A stretch of DNA of 64,000 bases from an uncultured Flavobacteriaceae bacterium. GTDB taxonomy: Bacteria > Bacteroidota > Bacteroidia > Flavobacteriales > Flavobacteriaceae. The notes below the pieces were generated by a model. That model was not told the DNA's origin and did no database searches. It saw only the letters and a list, made by a program, of their open reading frames with translations. Position 1 is the stretch's first letter. Every line of letters begins with the position of its first letter. The stretch is taken from positions 13,252-77,251 of the forward strand of contig CAYSVY010000012.1 of assembly GCA_964434705.1 (NCBI GenBank), given 5' to 3'. Shown here piece by piece: positions 11,310-50,508 of the stretch. The translations under genes and the position numbers were made by a program.

Positions 11310-12547
11310 TGGCCAAAGTAAAACCTTTTAAAGCAGTCCGTCCAACTCGCGCTATTGTGGGTTTGGTGGCGTCGCGTCCGTATGACAGCTATACTGTTGA
11401 TGAACGCGAATCGCGGATGGATTACAACCCGTATAGTTTTTTGCATATTGTAAATCCTGGTTACAAATATGACCAAGTGATTACTGGTGAAGAACGCTAT
11501 AAATTAGTACGAAACAGGTATTTGGAATTTAAAGAAGATGGCGTTTTTGTTCAAGATGAAAAACCGTCGCTTTACGTTTATAAAATTGTAAATCGTCATG
11601 GGCAAGTGTTTAATGGTATCATTGGCGCCACAAGTGCTGAAGATTATAAAAACAATGTCATAAAAAAGCACGAAGATACTATTGCCAAACGCGAAGAAAC
11701 CTTTAAAACCTACCTAAAAACAGTTGGCTTTAATGCAGAACCTGTGCTTCTTACCTATCCGGATAATACAGTTATTGCACAAATTATATCGGACGTACAA
11801 AAACAACATGCCGAGTTTGAGTTTACCATGACTTACCGTGATACGCACTATTTATGGAAAATCGACGATGACGAACAGTTGAAAACAATTCAACAGGAAT
11901 TTGAAAATATAGCAACGCTATATATTGCCGATGGCCATCATAGGTCGGCATCATCGGCTTTATTGGCGCAAAATGAATCGGAAGCAAACCCAAACCATTC
12001 AGGTTTGGAATCTTATAATTTCTTTATGTCGTATTTAATACCGGAATCGGATTTGGTAATTCATGAATTTAGCCGATTGGTGAAAGACTTAAACGGACTT
12101 TCAAAAGAAGAATTTTTAATTCAGTTAGACGCTGTTTTCAGAATAGAAAATCGCGGAGCTGTTCCGTATCATCCATCAAAACCGCATCATTTTAGCATGT
12201 ATTTAGATGGTGAGTTTTATTCGTTATACCTCAGAAAAACCCGTTACACGTTTGAAAACGCCTTAGATAAATTAGATGCGCAATTGCTATACAAAACAAT
12301 ACTGCAACCCATTTTGGGCATTGAGGATTTACGTAACAACAACCGTATTGAATACGTTAATGGCAGGCACGAAATGATTACAATTAAAAGCAGTGTCGAT
12401 TCGGGAAATTTTAAAGTGGGCTTTGGTATGATTCCTGCAACGGTAAACCAAATTAAACAAATTGCTGATGAAGGTTTAAAAATGCCACCAAAAAGCACTT
12501 ATATTTTGCCAAAGCTTAGAAGTGGTATTACGATATATGAATTTTAG
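11309..12547 (+). CDS. DUF1015 family protein
   Basis: PFKAVRP, IKKHEDT, YIADGHHRSAS, MPPKSTYILPKLRSG. Confidence 0.9.
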   Translation: MAKVKPFKAVRPTRAIVGLVASRPYDSYTVDERESRMDYNPYSFLHIVNPGYKYDQVITGEERYKLVRNRYLEFKEDGVFVQDEKPSLYVYKIVNRHGQVFNGIIGATSAEDYKNNVIKKHEDTIAKREETFKTYLKTVGFNAEPVLLTYPDNTVIAQIISDVQKQHAEFEFTMTYRDTHYLWKIDDDEQLKTIQQEFENIATLYIADGHHRSASSALLAQNESEANPNHSGLESYNFFMSYLIPESDLVIHEFSRLVKDLNGLSKEEFLIQLDAVFRIENRGAVPYHPSKPHHFSMYLDGEFYSLYLRKTRYTFENALDKLDAQLLYKTILQPILGIEDLRNNNRIEYVNGRHEMITIKSSVDSGNFKVGFGMIPATVNQIKQIADEGLKMPPKSTYILPKLRSGITIYEF

Positions 12548-12627: not shown

Positions 12628-12649
12628 TGTCACCTTGAGCGCAGTCGAA
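12628..12649 (+). repeat. REP-like element TGTCACCTTGAGCGCAGTCGAA
   Basis: Near-identical to copies at 42038-42063, 49171-49192 and 49222-49243. Confidence 0.8.
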
Positions 12650-12684
12650 TGGTCTTATTAGCTTGATTAATATTTTAGAACAAA

Positions 12685-13353
12685 ATGTACATAAAACAAA
12701 ACCTTAATAACATAAAATCTTCCATTCCTGAAAACGTTACACTTGTAGCGGTTTCCAAAACAAAACCCGTTAGCGATTTAATGGAAGCCTACAATTCTGG
12801 TCAGCGCGTATTTGGCGAAAATAAAATTCAGGAAATGACTGAAAAATATGAGCACCTACCAAAAGATATTGAGTGGCATATGATTGGCCATGTACAACGC
12901 AACAAGGTAAAATATATGGCAGAGTTTGTAAGTTTAATTCATGCTGTAGATAGCTTAAGATTACTACAAGAAATAAACAAACAAGCTCAGAAACATAATC
13001 GGGTTATCAATTGTTTACTTCAAATAAAAATAGCGCAAGAAGACAGCAAATTTGGAATGGAAGCCAATGAAGCTTCTACTCTACTACAATCCGAAGCATT
13101 AACTGAATTTCAGAACATTAAAATAGTTGGGCTTATGGGCATGGCAACATTTACCAAAGATATGGCTCAGGTTAAATCTGAATTTGAGTTTTTGAAAAAT
13201 ACATTCGATGAGCTTAAACAACTCAAAACTCAAAACTCAGAACTCAGAACTCTAAGTATGGGCATGAGTGGCGATTACCAATTGGCTATTGACTGTGGAA
13301 GCAACATGATTCGCGTTGGAAGTAGTATATTTGGATCAAGAAATTATTCTTAA
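12685..13353 (+). CDS. yggS: YggS family pyridoxal-phosphate homeostasis protein
   Basis: LVAVSKT, FGENKIQE, WHMIGHVQRNK, LSMGMSGDY, MIRVGSSIFG. Confidence 0.95.
   Translation: MYIKQNLNNIKSSIPENVTLVAVSKTKPVSDLMEAYNSGQRVFGENKIQEMTEKYEHLPKDIEWHMIGHVQRNKVKYMAEFVSLIHAVDSLRLLQEINKQAQKHNRVINCLLQIKIAQEDSKFGMEANEASTLLQSEALTEFQNIKIVGLMGMATFTKDMAQVKSEFEFLKNTFDELKQLKTQNSELRTLSMGMSGDYQLAIDCGSNMIRVGSSIFGSRNYS
13220..13254 (+). repeat. Intragenic heptamer array (AACTCAR x5) in yggS
   Basis: AACTCAA AACTCAA AACTCAG AACTCAG AACTCTA. Confidence 0.9.
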
Positions 13354-13433: not shown

Positions 13434-14795
13434 ATCTACGCAATACTCGACATAGAAACCACTGGCGGAAAGTACAATGAAGAAGGCATTACCGAGATTG
13501 CTATTTACCAATTTGATGGTCATAAAATCACTGACCAATTTATTAGCTTAGTAAATCCTGAACGTGACATTCAACCTTTCGTTGTTAACCTTACAGGTAT
13601 CAACAATAAAATGTTACGCAATGCACCAAAATTTTATGAGGTAGCCAAACGTATTGTTGAAATTACCGAAAACTGCATCATAGTTGCACACAATTCGGAA
13701 TTTGATTATCGGATATTAAAGACTGAATTTAAACGACTTGGCTTTCCGTTTAAACGCAAAACATTGTGTACGGTTGAACTTGCAAAGCAGTTAATACCAG
13801 ATATGCCATCGTACAGTTTGGGCAAATTATCGCGTGCGTTAGGTATAGCCATGAGCGACAGACATCGCGCTGATGGTGATGCTAAAGCAACCGTTAAACT
13901 CTTCAAATTATTACTAAGTAAAGATTCAAAAAAAGAAATAATTAAAGCTTCGGTTAAGGTTGAACAGAAATCAAAAATAGCTTCAAACCTCAGAACCATT
14001 ATTGACGAAATGCCATCGGATACAGGTGTGTATTACATTCATAACGACGCTGGCGATATTATTTATATTGGCAAAAGCAACAATATTAGAAAACGCATCA
14101 CGCAACACTTTACCAATTCAAACTCAAAATCAAAAAAAATTCAGGCATTAGTGGCATCAGTTTCCTTTGAAAAAACTGGGAGCGAACTCGTTGCTCTTTT
14201 AAAAGAAAGTGAAGAAATAAAGAAAAACAAACCCATTTTAAACAGAGCTTTAAAACGAAATAAATTCACCCAAGGTTTATATAGTTTTACAGATGATAAT
14301 GGTTATGTAAACTTACGCATCAATCACCTTAAACAAAACGAAAAACCAATTACAACCTTTACCAACAGGCAAAGTGGTATTTCGTTTATAAACCGAATGA
14401 TTGAAGATTATGAACTTTGCCCAAAATTGTGCGGTATTCAAAAATCGGAAACCAGTTGCTTTAACTACCACATAAAAGAATGTCATGGTGCTTGTATTAA
14501 AGAAGAATCTGCTGAGATATACAATAAACGCGCAAACGCTGTTATTCAAAAAAATAGCTACGACAATAAAAATATGGTACTCATAGATCGTGGTCGTGAT
14601 ATCGAGGAAAAAAGTGTAATACTAGTTGAAAATGGTACGTTTAAAGGTTTGGGGTTTTATGACTTAAATCATCAAATAAACAATATAGAGATATTACATT
14701 CGCTTATAACTCCGATGCAAAATAACAGAGATACGCAACATATTATTCAGAGCTATATGCGAAGAAATAAAAGACTCAAAATTATACAATTATAA
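13434..14795 (+). CDS. DEDDh 3'-5' exonuclease (Pol III epsilon-like) + GIY-YIG (UvrC-like) domain protein; inferred non-canonical ATC start
   Basis: In-frame IYAILDIETTGGKYNEEGITEIA upstream of ORF-track ATG 13611; AHNSEFD, HRADGDA, GVYYIH...YIGKS. Confidence 0.85.
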   Translation: MYAILDIETTGGKYNEEGITEIAIYQFDGHKITDQFISLVNPERDIQPFVVNLTGINNKMLRNAPKFYEVAKRIVEITENCIIVAHNSEFDYRILKTEFKRLGFPFKRKTLCTVELAKQLIPDMPSYSLGKLSRALGIAMSDRHRADGDAKATVKLFKLLLSKDSKKEIIKASVKVEQKSKIASNLRTIIDEMPSDTGVYYIHNDAGDIIYIGKSNNIRKRITQHFTNSNSKSKKIQALVASVSFEKTGSELVALLKESEEIKKNKPILNRALKRNKFTQGLYSFTDDNGYVNLRINHLKQNEKPITTFTNRQSGISFINRMIEDYELCPKLCGIQKSETSCFNYHIKECHGACIKEESAEIYNKRANAVIQKNSYDNKNMVLIDRGRDIEEKSVILVENGTFKGLGFYDLNHQINNIEILHSLITPMQNNRDTQHIIQSYMRRNKRLKIIQL

Positions 14796-41483: not shown

Positions 41484-41511
41484 AAATCGTTAATCATAAA
41501 TCGTCAATCTT
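41484..41511. repeat. Heptamer array (AATC x4) overlapping prmC stop
   Basis: AAATCGT TAATCAT AAATCGT CAATCTT. Confidence 0.7.
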
Positions 41512-42420
41512 AGTTCCACTTAACATTCTTTCATTACCATTTAAATCTTTCCGTAATTCTATAGTTTTAAAGTTGAAATCCTTTAATAATTGTTTTGTCT
41601 CATTGCCAAGATACTGATTGATTTCGAAAAACAATTGCCCGTTGGGTTTCAAATATTTTGATGCGAAGTTGGCTATCGCATCATAGAACACTAACGGATT
41701 ATTGTCTTTAACAAAAAGTGCCAAATGCGGTTCGTAGTCTAACACATTAGGTTTAATTTCTGCTTTTTCAAGCTGGCGTACGTATGGTGGATTTGATACG
41801 ATTATATCAAATTCCAAATTTTCAAAAAACAAATTCCAATTTAAAGTATCGCGTATGTCTGCTTTGATAAATTCGATATTTACATTATTTAGTTGTGCAT
41901 TTTGCTTTGCGACTTTTAGGGCTTCGTCAGATATATCCAGAGCATAGATTTTAGCATTGGGCAAATACTTAGCCAAACTTATGGCTATACATCCTGAACC
42001 TGTGCCAACATCAAAAATATTAAGTTGGTTTTGAAGAGACTTCTCGACTGCGCTCGAAGTAACAGCAAACTTTTGACTTTTAACTTTTAACTTTAAACTT
42101 TGAATCATCCAGTTGACTAATTCTTCTGTTTCTTGACGTGGTATTAATACGTGTTTATTTACTTTAAATTTTAAACCATAAAATTCTGTTTCGCCTAAAA
42201 TATATTGAATGGGTTCGTTATTTTTTAGACGGTTAAGTGTTTTAAAAACCGTATCGTATTCGTTTTTTGAAATTGTGAATTCTGGCTGTAAAATCAATTG
42301 AATTCTGGGAAAATCAAAATAAAATTCAGTACAAATAAAAAAGATAGACTCTACTTCTTCTCTACCGTAAATGGCATTCAGTTCGTTATGAAAAATTATT
42401 TTTAAATCCGTAATTTTCAT
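41494..42420 (-). CDS. prmC: Peptide chain release factor N5-glutamine methyltransferase
   Basis: EPIQYILG, VLIPRQETEEL, DVGTGSGCIA, SNPPY, EPHLALF. Confidence 0.95.
   Translation of the reverse strand: MKITDLKIIFHNELNAIYGREEVESIFFICTEFYFDFPRIQLILQPEFTISKNEYDTVFKTLNRLKNNEPIQYILGETEFYGLKFKVNKHVLIPRQETEELVNWMIQSLKLKVKSQKFAVTSSAVEKSLQNQLNIFDVGTGSGCIAISLAKYLPNAKIYALDISDEALKVAKQNAQLNNVNIEFIKADIRDTLNWNLFFENLEFDIIVSNPPYVRQLEKAEIKPNVLDYEPHLALFVKDNNPLVFYDAIANFASKYLKPNGQLFFEINQYLGNETKQLLKDFNFKTIELRKDLNGNERMLSGTKIDDL
42038..42103 (-). repeat. In-frame composite insert in prmC: heptamer array (42069-42103) + REP copy (42038-42063)
   Basis: ACTTTTG ACTTTTA ACTTTTA ACTTTAA ACTTTGA; minus strand GTTACTTCGAGCGCAGTCGAGAAGTC. 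Confidence 0.85.
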
Positions 42421-47831: not shown

Positions 47832-49124
47832 ATGCCGTTATCAGCAAATAATCCAAATAGAACTTCTTGGCTTTATGTCAACAAACATTCAGATTTTCCT
47901 ATACAAAATATACCATTTGGTGTCTTTTTAACCAAAGACGATATTATTACCATTGGTACAAGAATTGGAGATACAGCCATTGACCTTGGAGCGTTGCACC
48001 AGTTGGGTTATTTTGACGGCATTCCGTTAACAGATGATATTTTTCTTCAAGATTCATTAAACGATTTTATTGCTGACGGTCGTAAAACTTGGCGTGCCGT
48101 TAGAAATAGGGTTGCTGAAATATTTGACAACAACAACGAAACCCTAAAGCACAACACAAAGCACAAAGAGATTATTTGTTTTCGATTAGATGAAATTGAA
48201 ATGAAAGTGCCTATACATGTTGGTGACTATACGGATTTTTATGCAAGTAAAGAGCACGCTACCAATGTTGGCACCATGTTTCGTGGTGCAGAAAATGCAT
48301 TAATGCCAAATTGGTTGCACATGCCGGTTGGTTATCATGGGCGTAGCTCATCAATAGTAACAACGCATACACCAATTCACAGACCGCAAGGACAAATGCT
48401 ACCAGAAGGTGCTGAAAAGCCTGTATTTGGTCCAAGTAAGCTAGTTGATTTTGAATTGGAGATGGCATTTATAACCACTGATGCCAATGATATTGGCGAA
48501 CCTATACCTATTGAAGAAGCTGAAGAATACATCTTTGGTTTGGTAGTGTTTAACGATTGGTCTGCAAGGGATATTCAAAAATGGGAATATGTACCGCTTG
48601 GTCCATTTCTGGGCAAAAACTTTGCATCGTGTATGTCGCCTTGGATTGTAACTTTAGATGCACTTGAGCCCTTTAGAGTTGAAAGCCCAAAGCAAGATCC
48701 GAAGCCTCTACCCTATTTAAGTACTACTGGAAAGCATAGTTTTGATATTAATTTAGAAGTTGGTATTCAGCCAAAAGGATCAAAGGAAACTACGGTTTGC
48801 CGTTCAAATTTCAAATACATGTACTGGAATATGGCACAGCAATTGGCGCATCACACTGTTAACGGTTGCCCTGTAAACTCTGGCGATATGATGGGAAGCG
48901 GTACCATTTCTGGCCCAACGGAAGATTCTTATGGCTCCATGCTGGAGCTTACTTGGAAAGGTACAAAACCTTTGAAAATGAAAGACGGTACGGAACGTAA
49001 ATTTATTAACGATTACGACACAGTTGTTATGCGTGGTTATTGTGAAAATGACGACGTACGTATTGGATTTGGTCAAGTAAAAACACAACTCCTACCGGTT
49101 TTTAACCAAAAAAAATCCAAGTAA
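47832..49124 (+). CDS. fahA: Fumarylacetoacetase
   Basis: FPIQNIPFG, GDYTDFY, PVGYHGRSSS, NDWSARDIQ.WE..PLGPF, GSGTISG. Confidence 0.93.
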   Translation: MPLSANNPNRTSWLYVNKHSDFPIQNIPFGVFLTKDDIITIGTRIGDTAIDLGALHQLGYFDGIPLTDDIFLQDSLNDFIADGRKTWRAVRNRVAEIFDNNNETLKHNTKHKEIICFRLDEIEMKVPIHVGDYTDFYASKEHATNVGTMFRGAENALMPNWLHMPVGYHGRSSSIVTTHTPIHRPQGQMLPEGAEKPVFGPSKLVDFELEMAFITTDANDIGEPIPIEEAEEYIFGLVVFNDWSARDIQKWEYVPLGPFLGKNFASCMSPWIVTLDALEPFRVESPKQDPKPLPYLSTTGKHSFDINLEVGIQPKGSKETTVCRSNFKYMYWNMAQQLAHHTVNGCPVNSGDMMGSGTISGPTEDSYGSMLELTWKGTKPLKMKDGTERKFINDYDTVVMRGYCENDDVRIGFGQVKTQLLPVFNQKKSK

Positions 49125-49144: not shown

Positions 49145-49277
49145 AGAAGCTGTCTCAAAACCTATTTTAATGTCATTCTGAGCGCAGTCGAAGAATCTTA
49201 TATAATTCATAATCAATACATTTCGACTGCGCTCAATGTGACATAAGACTAAAATTTGAAGTTTTGAGACAGCCTCT
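49145..49277. repeat. REPIN-like nested element: inverted REP pair inside an outer 17-bp IR
   Basis: Outer IR 49145-49161/49261-49277 (16/17); inner REPs 49171-49192/49222-49243 (19/22). Confidence 0.85.
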
Positions 49278-49332: not shown

Positions 49333-50508
49333 ATGAGAAATAGTATCACATTGTTGTTTTTAACTATTATGGTTTTCGGTTGTAGCTCAAAACGAAAAGT
49401 TGAGCGTGCCTTGACTTCTGGCAATTATAACGAAGCTATTTATAAAGCCGTAAATCGTTTAAAAAACAATAAAGATGCTAAGCGAAAACAAGATTTCATT
49501 TTACTTTTAAAAGATGCTTACGATAAGGCCAATACCAGAGACTTAAATGCTATTAAAGGCTTAGAAGCATCAAAGAACCCAGAATATTACCAGCGTATTT
49601 TTGAAACCTATAATGCTATGGACCAAAGGCAAAATGCCATAATACCATTATTGCCGTTAAAGGTAAAAAACCGAGAAGTATATTTTGACATTAATGATTA
49701 CACACAAGAAATTAATGTCGCCAGGGAAAACGTATCCAGCCATTTTTACAGTAAAAGTCAAACACTTTTAAATACTGAAGACAAGCTTCAAATTAGAGAT
49801 GCTTATGACACTTTGGAATATATTGAAGATATCAATCCAAACTATCAAAACACCAGAAACTTAATGTTTGAAGCGCATGAAAGAGGTAAATCTCACGTTT
49901 TGGTAAGCATTGAAAATAGAACAAATCAAATCATACCGAAACGACTGGAAAATGCGCTACTGGATTTTGATACTTATGGGTTAAACCAATTTTGGACAGA
50001 ATTTCATTCGCTTGAAAAAGACAGCCTAGAGTTTGACTATGGCATGACGCTCAGACTTGCACAAATAAACATTTCACCAGAGCAAGTGAGAGAACGTGAG
50101 GTGTTGCGCCAACAAGAAATTAGAGATGGATGGCAGTATGTTCTTGACGAAAATGGTAACGTTGCCAAAGACAGTTTGGGTAACGATATTAAAGAAGATA
50201 AGTTTATTAATGTACGTGCAAGACTTTTTGAGGTTGAACAGTTCAAACAATCACAAATTACAGCTAATCTTATTTTGGTAGACTACAACAACAATGAAGT
50301 TATTGAGCAGTTTAATATTGATAGCGGGTTCGTTTTTGAAAATTTTTATGCCACTTTCAGAGGCGATAGGCGCGCACTCACAGCTGATGATATAACATTA
50401 ATTAATGGTGGCCCAATTCCCTTCCCCTATAACGAACAAATGGTGTTTGATTCTGGCGAAGATTTAAAGTTACAACTCAAAGAATTAATTGCAGATTACA
50501 GATTTTAA
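49333..50508 (+). CDS. Conserved hypothetical lipoprotein
   Basis: Lipobox VFGC; helical N-terminus; GD+RAL near C-terminus. Confidence 0.7.
   Translation: MRNSITLLFLTIMVFGCSSKRKVERALTSGNYNEAIYKAVNRLKNNKDAKRKQDFILLLKDAYDKANTRDLNAIKGLEASKNPEYYQRIFETYNAMDQRQNAIIPLLPLKVKNREVYFDINDYTQEINVARENVSSHFYSKSQTLLNTEDKLQIRDAYDTLEYIEDINPNYQNTRNLMFEAHERGKSHVLVSIENRTNQIIPKRLENALLDFDTYGLNQFWTEFHSLEKDSLEFDYGMTLRLAQINISPEQVREREVLRQQEIRDGWQYVLDENGNVAKDSLGNDIKEDKFINVRARLFEVEQFKQSQITANLILVDYNNNEVIEQFNIDSGFVFENFYATFRGDRRALTADDITLINGGPIPFPYNEQMVFDSGEDLKLQLKELIADYRF

Follow-up and report, generated by a model that had tools for sequence, protein, structure and literature searches.

The gene prmC, which encodes the peptide chain release factor N5-glutamine methyltransferase, carries two kinds of repeat DNA that are read as protein in a 64,000-nucleotide stretch (the window) from an uncultured marine flavobacterium of the genus Winogradskyella. 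We consider it probable that one of these segments is an inherited copy of a dispersed family of TGTC-tagged hairpins, residing in a tolerant interdomain linker beside a heptamer array that arose by slippage, and that the family has a small GIY-YIG nuclease as its likely partner. The Winogradskyella family is a relative of the CGTC/TGTC superfamily of repetitive extragenic palindromic (REP) elements. Repeat DNA read as protein in a tolerant loop is an already known kind of selfish DNA inside a gene. What is added here is a candidate cognate nuclease, the recurrent occupation of the same protein loops throughout a genus, and replacement without a change in length.

An earlier note on this DNA had proposed that selfish repeats are generating new peptide sequence in a conserved housekeeping methyltransferase. 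This remains true to the extent that two kinds of repeat are translated within the enzyme, but the hairpin is not a fresh arrival, as about a dozen congeners share its allele. The host genome is a metagenome-assembled genome (MAG) that is 96% complete and comprises 3.17 Mb with 36% G+C in 71 contigs.

Repeat DNA Translated in the PrmC Linker

The features of the prmC locus, all on the minus strand of the window, are as follows.

41494–42420, minus strand: prmC, peptide chain release factor N5-glutamine methyltransferase, an intact open reading frame (ORF) of 308 aa.
42036–42064, minus strand: hairpin repeat copy of 29 nt, TGTT-ACTTC-GAGCGCAGTCGA-GAAGT-CTC.
42044–42055, minus strand: core GAGCGCAGTCGA of this hairpin, matching at 12 of 12 core positions, with 5 of 5 bp in the stem.
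42068–42101, minus strand: heptamer tandem array (Tandem Repeats Finder period 7, 4.9 copies, 88% matches, score 54).
42025–42035, minus strand: remainder of the linker, LQNQ, between the repeat and strand beta-1 (pairwise DNA alignment with the congener linker L072).

The protein matches the TIGR03534 equivalog with 264 bits (cut-off 199) and Thermotoga maritima HemK (PDB 1NV8 and 1SG9) at 1e-22. Residues N210-P-P-Y213, D137, T140 and G141 are invariant in an alignment of 32 sequences (A1), and the NPPY and DVGTGSG motifs are kept. From the start of the ETEEL helix to motif I, the protein reads ...ETEELVNWMI QSLKLKVKSQKF AVTSSAVEKS LQNQ LNIFDVGTGSG, just as the earlier note had read the insert between EELVNWMI and LNIFDVGTGSG. 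The array has the consensus AACTTTT on the plus strand and the coding-strand units AAAGTTT, AAAGTTA and AAAAGTC. It codes for SLKLKVKSQKF (residues 108 to 118), which bears out the proposal that heptamers underlie the peptide QSLKLKVKSQK. The hairpin codes for (A)VTSSAVEKS(L) (residues 119 to 129) and has the tag TGTT, where the family consensus is TGTC. A one-off assembly error at prmC was considered and ruled out, because contigs from four metagenome runs (all of one study and possibly the source of the MAG itself) show zero differences between positions 41800 and 42400.

The interdomain linker, measured from ETEEL to D-I/V-G-T-G, is 35 aa long in this genome, compared to 16 to 17 aa in four of five outgroup genomes (other families of the order) and mostly 18 to 22 aa in the genus. 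When PrmC is aligned to T. maritima HemK with HMMER, 18 gap positions fall exactly at this linker. Modeling of the loop had been suggested previously. The AlphaFold2 model (32-sequence alignment) has a mean predicted local distance difference test (pLDDT) value of 87.6, its helix at residues 96 to 117 continues through the heptamer-coded residues, and strand beta-1 is formed at residues 134 to 138, after the hairpin-coded segment. Residues 118 to 130, which the hairpin codes, are the sole segment with pLDDT < 50. The extra sequence is therefore predicted to form a helix extension and a floppy surface loop that lies between both domains and away from the NPPY site. Most likely the enzyme is unaffected by the insert, which would make the insert neutral.

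A Dispersed Hairpin Family

The exact 26-mer at 42038–42063 (minus strand), which the earlier note had reported to recur at 12628, 49171 and 49222, has no second copy in the window, even when three mismatches are allowed. Because this string proved unique, the family was defined by its core and architecture, and on this definition members of the same family do reside at those places, with cores beginning at 12637, 49180 and 49223, all intergenic. These have the 12-nt core and the TGTC tag in common, and each has a complementary 5-bp stem whose sequence is different.

12628–12655 (core 12637–12648), plus strand: intergenic family member tgtcACCTT-GAGCGCAGTCGA-ATGGTc, flanked by an ORF that ends at 12547 and one that starts at 12685.
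49171–49243 (cores 49180–49191, plus strand, and 49223–49234, minus strand): intergenic inverted pair with tags outward, flanked by an ORF that ends at 49124 and one that starts at 49333.

The core GAGCGCAGTCGA occurs in 67 exact copies in the 3.17-Mb genome, compared to 0 for the reversed control. Copies conform to the consensus tGTC-A-NNN-Y-GAGCGCAGTCGA-R-NNN-T-c(t), wherein the three inner stem pairs covary freely. A perfect 5-bp Watson–Crick stem is present in 50 of the 67, and 30 different stem sequences are used. The tag is TGTC in 60 of these copies and TGTT in 4, including that of prmC. Given the 67 cores against none in the control, the 50 perfect stems and their 30 sequences, the match is far beyond chance, and the significance of the resemblance between the prmC and intergenic copies is upheld. 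When four one-letter core variants are allowed, the family grows to 82 copies. Eight inverted pairs, with members 30 to 43 nt apart and tags outward, are found genome-wide. The core is present in 89 of 97 Winogradskyella species genomes, with 0 to 67 copies each (this genome having the most), and its 12 nucleotides are invariant across the genus. No Rfam family was matched in a scan of the whole window.

These data also dispose of the idea that the prmC segment is a chance resemblance or a convergent peptide with no origin in repeat DNA. The short length of the element is all that speaks for this explanation, which we consider refuted: there are 67 copies against none in the control, the prmC copy combines a perfect stem with a tag and a tail, different species use two frames to read the same DNA (see below), and a 7-nt periodicity is not obtainable from codons.

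Around the intergenic pair, a 13-bp perfect inverted repeat (gctgtctcaaaac at 49149–49161 and gttttgagacagc at 49263–49275) encloses both hairpins, and near-identical copies of the whole 49149–49275 unit are located at G000:C10:~103100 and C5:~47200 of the same genome. This unit may be a composite element, similar to miniature inverted-repeat transposable elements, that is built round the hairpin pair. Canonical TGTC hairpins with 8-bp stems and 4- to 5-nt loops are also present elsewhere in this genome.

Shared Alleles and Turnover at the Linker

Linker DNA was compared among 99 prmC orthologues (94 from the genus and 5 from the outgroup), and a hairpin core was scored when it had no more than three mismatches in the 12-mer, or no more than two in the 11-mer variant GAGCGAAGCGA. 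At this strict threshold, 29 of the 94 genus orthologues retain a hairpin core at the linker, and further ones are recognizable by eye. Three classes of allele and frame are seen, with the peptides SVTSSAVEKSL, CHSERSEESQ and CHTKRSRSAHEN.

Class A: tct GTC ACT TCG AGC GCA GTC GAG AAG TCT, read as SVTSSAVEKS.
Class B: TGT CAT TCA GAG CGA AGC GAA GAA TCT, read as CHSERSEES.
Class B2: TGT CAC ACC AAG CGC AGT CGA AGT GCT, read as CHTKRSRSA.

Class A, with the stem ACTTC/GAAGT in the same frame and at the same position, is shared by this genome and about 12 congeners (including linkers L008, L013, L031, L034, L036 to L038 and L047). In class B, which uses another frame, the start is shifted by 2 nt to an earlier position and the core is 11 nt long, and class B2 linkers are 22 to 24 aa long. 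In L002, L004 and L035, a second inverted copy is nested in the first, and the tag variant GTTACTTC (T for C) is common to L035 and this genome. Alleles can differ between close relatives. For example, L007 (class B2) and L047 (class A) belong to PrmC proteins that are 89% identical outside the linker, and the linkers of L045 and L061 differ in length (32 versus 21 aa, respectively) although their PrmC proteins are 96% identical. In most of the genus, the linker derives in some form from a REP or from heptamers, with the hairpin decayed or missing in many congeners. The repeat peptide is missing from PrmC of the outgroups from other families, in keeping with the earlier view that the segment is an insert. 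In our reading, the hairpin in this prmC is inherited, while the linker site, considered over all congeners, is one at which hairpins land repeatedly.

Heptamer Arrays Beside the Hairpin

At least seven of the congener linkers (L061, L065, L066, L072, L082, L088 and L044) are made of three to four TCAAAAT-like heptamers, read as peptides such as DSKFKVQSS and DSKLKSQNS. In pairwise alignments, the array of this genome and the sequence after its hairpin match shorter linkers of this type (L065, L066 and L072), relative to which this genome has roughly one more unit and, in between, a block that contains the hairpin. The LQNQ stretch would correspond, in a shifted frame, to the tail of these heptamer-type linkers. 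Other linkers carry arrays of their own and reach 32 to 36 aa. L005 (genome G024) has a decayed class B hairpin and a (CAACACC)n array read as HPTPNTLHLTPNPQHP, and L045 (G056) and L078 (G080) have an (AATCGTC)3 array read as KSSIVNRQ.

Arrays of at least four units number 24 at period 7 genome-wide, compared to 6, 5, 2 and 1 at periods 5, 6, 8 and 9, respectively. An excess of heptanucleotide repeats in bacteria is ascribed to polymerase slippage in a passage of PMC4679880 that summarizes Mrazek 2007. The earlier note had taken prmC as a direct link between the two repeat classes. This proposal fails, as a period-7 array lies within 100 nt of just 1 of the 82 hairpins, namely that of prmC itself. 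Hairpin and array therefore meet in prmC because the loop tolerates both, without mechanistic coupling.

Another heptamer array in the window (AACTCAA, 13220–13252, 4.7 units, 96% matches) is in frame in a yggS-like gene, where it is read as KQLKTQNSELRTL before LSMGMSGDY. Arrays with 100% matches are present elsewhere in the genome (G000) at C1:163591 (TTGGCTA, 8.9 units), C15:81372 (AGCCAAC, 7.9 units) and C23:46825 (GTTGGCT, 7.9 units), and several of the long perfect heptamer arrays are located at the 5′ edge of open frames.

We propose that the loop joining the N-terminal helical domain to strand beta-1 (motif I) can tolerate almost any sequence and many lengths. A heptamer simple-sequence array could have grown to five units at this location by replication slippage, which would have lengthened the preceding helix. 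The hairpin allele would descend from a common ancestor of this lineage and roughly a dozen congeners, and the array would belong to the linker type of other congeners. Thus, only the combination of hairpin and array and the 35-aa length would be peculiar to this genome.

A competing scenario is a recent, lineage-private insertion, wherein transposition brought the REP into this prmC with a heptamer array attached to it. The 35-aa linker, as well as the combination of an intact hairpin with a five-unit array, is unique among the 97 species sampled, and this genome has the top hairpin count in the genus, as such an event might lead one to expect. However, the roughly 12 congeners with the same stem, frame and position largely refute this scenario for the hairpin. 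In addition, array linkers that lack a hairpin and align with this one are present in at least seven congeners, and the association of hairpin with array is absent elsewhere (1 of 82). We therefore judge a private insertion to be quite improbable.

In-Frame Copies in Other Genes and the Mode of Spread

REP elements had been described in the earlier note as nearly always extragenic, a generalization that this family breaks: 13 of the 82 copies (16%) are in frame within 12 Pfam-confirmed genes, whose open frames span 249 to 2149 codons. The products are Mfd (which carries an inverted pair), a sortilin/BNR protein, diphosphomevalonate decarboxylase, RNase R, leucyl-tRNA synthetase (LeuRS), an FAD monooxygenase, a chorismate-binding enzyme, peptidase M3, alpha-2-macroglobulin, an E2 acyltransferase, a GT2 glycosyltransferase and PrmC. 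The SAVE frame is used by seven of the eight sense copies.

In leuS (L193, G000:C9:90752-91171), the hairpin replaces 18 nt and leaves the length unchanged, such that VVSNEKINNKT becomes VVSSSAVENKT, and the ancestral GTNGTCAGT is retained at the left edge. Among the loci compared at this site (L194 to L216), those of G014 and G010 are occupied by different hairpins, and 12 congeners lack a hairpin there. A genus-specific loop of RNase R holds a hairpin in this genome, G005, G014 and G012. This loop is occupied in at least six species, with no net length change among most congeners, and the rnr stem has undergone a compensatory change from ACGCT/AGCGT to ACACT/AGTGT. The same loop that holds the GAGCGCAGTCGA type carries, in G003 (L223), a canonical CGTC-1-like unit, TGTC-ATTCCTGC-aaag-GCAGGAAT-ctc, that is read as VIPAKAGIS, and in G011 it has yet another stem. 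The inverted pair in mfd makes the protein of this genome 39 aa longer; other hairpin-type inserts are found at the site in G003, G011, G013 and G014, and 10 congeners are empty. As a side observation, the VIPAKAGIS peptide of G003 resembles peptides listed for Erythrobacter and Coxiella (PMC3733652).

Genus-wide, the loops of PrmC, RNase R, Mfd and LeuRS appear to have been written and overwritten by different hairpin alleles. Because there is no net length change in LeuRS and, for most congeners, in RNase R, these comparisons suggest that other copies served as the source for templated patch replacement or gene conversion, with the reading frame acting as a filter, over simple cut-and-paste insertion. 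Loop re-use and replacement at constant length are the basis of a more extensive proposal. One possibility is that the family spreads generally in this way, by gene conversion or template switching that is perhaps started by the GIY-YIG nuclease. Each copy would take the place of a similarly long stretch where there is micro-homology to its tag or arm, and the PrmC linker would be a recurrent target, independently so in Rickettsia. Such a process would explain the unchanged lengths of leuS and rnr, the re-use of loops across the genus, and the differing alleles and frames of close relatives. We offer this broader proposal tentatively and consider it rather unlikely in its full form.

A Candidate Partner Nuclease

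Either a dedicated transposase or a nuclease had been suggested as the cognate protein of the repeats, and for the nuclease a candidate is present.

G000:C21:37246-37593: small GIY-YIG ORF of 116 aa, matching PF01541 with 65.6 bits.

Cores flank this ORF at C21:37606 and 37258, one being 13 nt upstream and the inverted one lying across the last codons. Close homologues (E <= 1e-35) are encoded by 26 other genomes. Among the 26 best loci (this genome and 25 congeners), 22 have hairpins to either side of the gene and 25 are accompanied by one copy or more, whereas loci with more distant GIY-YIG homologues (L302 to L305) have no hairpin copies. The bracketed unit is found in at least seven genomic contexts. 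Hairpin numbers tend to be higher where the gene is present: the median is 24.5 copies in genomes with a close homologue and 8 in those without (Mann–Whitney p ~2e-6, Spearman 0.51), and a close homologue is present in 17 of 29 genomes with 20 or more copies versus 1 of 31 with 5 or fewer, although related genomes are not independent in either comparison. The Tyr/Tyr/Glu residues of the ORF are located at Y5-7, Y17 and E65, compared to Y6, Y17 and E64, the mutated positions of the nuclease SsnA. By analogy of architecture, the family likely resembles the pair formed by an Ssn nuclease and its Ssn-related motif (SRM), and the bracketed protein is a candidate cognate GIY-YIG nuclease that would be specific for the hairpin.

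Another small GIY-YIG gene of this genome (C41:1390-1617) has six TGTC hairpins around it (G000:C41:1120-1680), with 8-bp stems that covary (ATGCTGAA, ATTCCGAA and ACCCTGAA) and 5-nt loops (cttgt, tttat and similar). These may constitute a second nuclease/motif pair in one genome. A GIY-YIG domain (42 bits) also occurs in the window, at 14025–14234 within a 459-aa exonuclease ORF, and is unrelated to the small bracketed nuclease genes.

Weighing the Proposal

Several results weigh against the proposal that the prmC segment is an inherited member of a hairpin family with a GIY-YIG partner. The nearest relative available is not a close one, with a PrmC identity of 71%. There is no pair of filled and empty sites that would date the heptamer array. 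A maximum-likelihood tree of PrmC alone was poorly resolved, with an outgroup that was not monophyletic, and left independent gains at the site uncounted; N-terminal trimming had dropped 16 rows, and the tree was used for close pairs only and then replaced by pairwise identities. With respect to the partner, a close GIY-YIG homologue is absent in 12 of the 29 repeat-rich genomes (again related and not independent), and none was found in G111, which has 44 copies. The closest PDB chains to the GIY-YIG protein are the UPF0213 proteins 1ZG2 and 1YWL, and an NCBIfam search with this protein gave zero matches. None of the 67 copies fits the SRM pattern HGTCWYN(0-2)YYVSBRHN(0-5)WNVSBRGN(0-2)RNCYNB, which has 2 matches genome-wide versus 2 to 6 in shuffles. 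A model of the nuclease in complex with hairpin single-stranded DNA scored 0.00 (controls <=0.07) with the protein poorly folded, and carries no weight for or against the pairing. No PF01797 (Y1 transposase) match was found in this MAG, whose 96% completeness leaves the absence unproven, though control genomes matched.

Two further results on the same side concern the hairpin itself. Its fold in prmC (RNA -5.9 and DNA -2.7 kcal/mol) is no more stable than those of shuffles, which means that some factor other than stability maintains the pairing. When identical residues are compared, codon identity is not significantly higher in the class A hairpin segment than in the rest of prmC. Plain inheritance with ordinary constraint on the protein explains the shared allele, without a DNA-level force.

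The same results bear on whether the hairpin, as DNA or mRNA, or its peptide is a selected element that serves PrmC expression or function, for example as a signal for a nuclease or for recombination, as a site of RNA processing, or as a flexible tether. Such a role would fit the persistence of the hairpin at one site across much of the genus, in which PrmC identity is only ~65%, the compensatory stem change inside rnr, and the invariance of the 12-nt core. Furthermore, a passage of PMC11893778 states that Ssn motifs modulate transformation in Neisseria through SsnA. However, many congeners have decayed or lost the hairpin and the outgroups manage without it, neither the codon-level test nor the folding comparison favors selection, the coded part is predicted to be disordered, and the family is also found in unrelated genes and spacers. 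A selected function is thus improbable in our estimation.

Finally, we considered classical REP/REPIN elements mobilized by a REP-associated tyrosine transposase (RAYT). Short palindromes that often occur in inverted pairs 30 to 43 nt apart (eight pairs) are what such a system would produce. Nevertheless, PF01797 was matched in the control genomes and not in this one, the tag is TGTC and not GTAG, and according to PMC3733652, there is no dedicated transposase for CGTC/TGTC REPs. Mobilization by a RAYT is accordingly very improbable. The anticipated cognate protein is better represented by the bracketed 116-aa GIY-YIG gene.

Implications

These findings add marine Flavobacteriaceae to Rickettsia and proteobacteria as hosts of selfish hairpins in housekeeping genes. 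No paper on such elements in Winogradskyella or other flavobacteria was found. The findings also tie the family to a bracketed GIY-YIG gene of the newly described, Ssn-like kind, even though the repeat falls outside the published search motif. The 97-genome genus, in which the same loops (PrmC, RNase R, Mfd and LeuRS) carry different alleles, constitutes a natural experiment on element movement, and it bears on how surface loops of conserved enzymes gain new sequence. For annotation, peptides such as VTSSAVEKS and CHSERSEES in flavobacterial proteins should be recognized as repeat-derived.

Comparison with Known Systems

REP/REPIN-RAYT systems have a GTAG tag, and the RAYT is an IS200-like Y1 transposase flanked by the repeat. 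The Winogradskyella family shares with those of gamma-proteobacteria its dispersed short palindromes, frequent inverted doublets and mostly intergenic location. In contrast, its tag is TGTC, no RAYT gene was found in this genome, and 16% of its copies are intragenic.

Heptanucleotide repeats have a related class in the cyanobacterial short tandemly repeated repetitive (STRR) sequences. As in heptanucleotide simple-sequence repeats generally, period 7 is in excess here, units differ by locus, and slippage is the attributed cause (in the passage of PMC4679880 mentioned above). The prmC array differs in being translated within an essential-type gene, wherein only frame-preserving states survive.

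Rickettsia palindromic elements (RPEs) were reportedly described by Ogata et al. in 2000. Like them, the Winogradskyella family is a dispersed palindrome that appears in frame in 12 intact genes and, in PrmC, would form a part of the protein that is modeled with low confidence. The analogy with RPEs drawn in the earlier note is an apt one, as these are likewise intragenic CGTC/TGTC-tagged palindromes and R. conorii PrmC/TrmB carries one. Specifically, RC1314 (524 aa, annotated as ‘trna-GN7-methyltransferase’, PrmC/TrmB) has a CGTC-1 unit at residues 109 to 117, read as CHSRESGNP (PMC3733652). Positions 39 to 306 of NF002421, the 524-aa PrmC/TrmB model, align to PrmC residues 38 to 304, and judging from these coordinates the RC1314 unit very probably sits in the same PrmC linker.

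RPE-4 and RPE-6 are counted among the CGTC-tagged REPs, whose unpaired terminal tag is often TGTC and can also be CCTC, and which have 8- to 9-bp stems starting with A-T, loops of 4 to 5 nt and short tails (Di Nocera et al. 2013, PMC3733652). These REPs are reported to occur mostly as head-to-head pairs, have no known dedicated transposase, and include intragenic units in many species (PMC3733652). The Winogradskyella family differs from them in its variable 5-bp stem and in having an invariant 12-nt center instead of a 4- to 5-nt loop; a 9 + 4 + 9 geometry is possible only with G.A/A.G and C.T mismatches. Its tail is CTT/CTC and not CCA, all eight of its pairs have tags outward, and its host is a marine flavobacterium. 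What the two have in common is an unpaired terminal TGTC tag, a stem starting with A, a short tail, inverted pairs, the lack of any RAYT found, and copies in frame in conserved genes such as those for tRNA synthetases and repair proteins.

The remaining comparison is with the Ssn system. SsnA is a 94-aa GIY-YIG protein that binds the NTS/dRS3 hairpin as single-stranded DNA and cleaves a few nucleotides upstream of it; copies of the motif typically stand on both sides of its gene, and genomes rich in the repeat encode the protein as a rule (Chenal et al. 2025, PMC11893778). Nucleases of this system belong to the CDD family cd10448 and are specific for single-stranded DNA. The main text of that paper mentions neither Bacteroidota nor in-frame copies. 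Unlike SRM repeats, Winogradskyella copies lie outside the published search pattern, and the likeness is one of genes and motifs. On that level, it includes a small single-domain GIY-YIG gene bracketed by inverted hairpins at 22 of the 26 best loci, a copy number that tends to be higher when the gene is present, a (C/T)GTC tag followed by A, and a catalytic Tyr/Tyr/Glu set at nearly the same positions.

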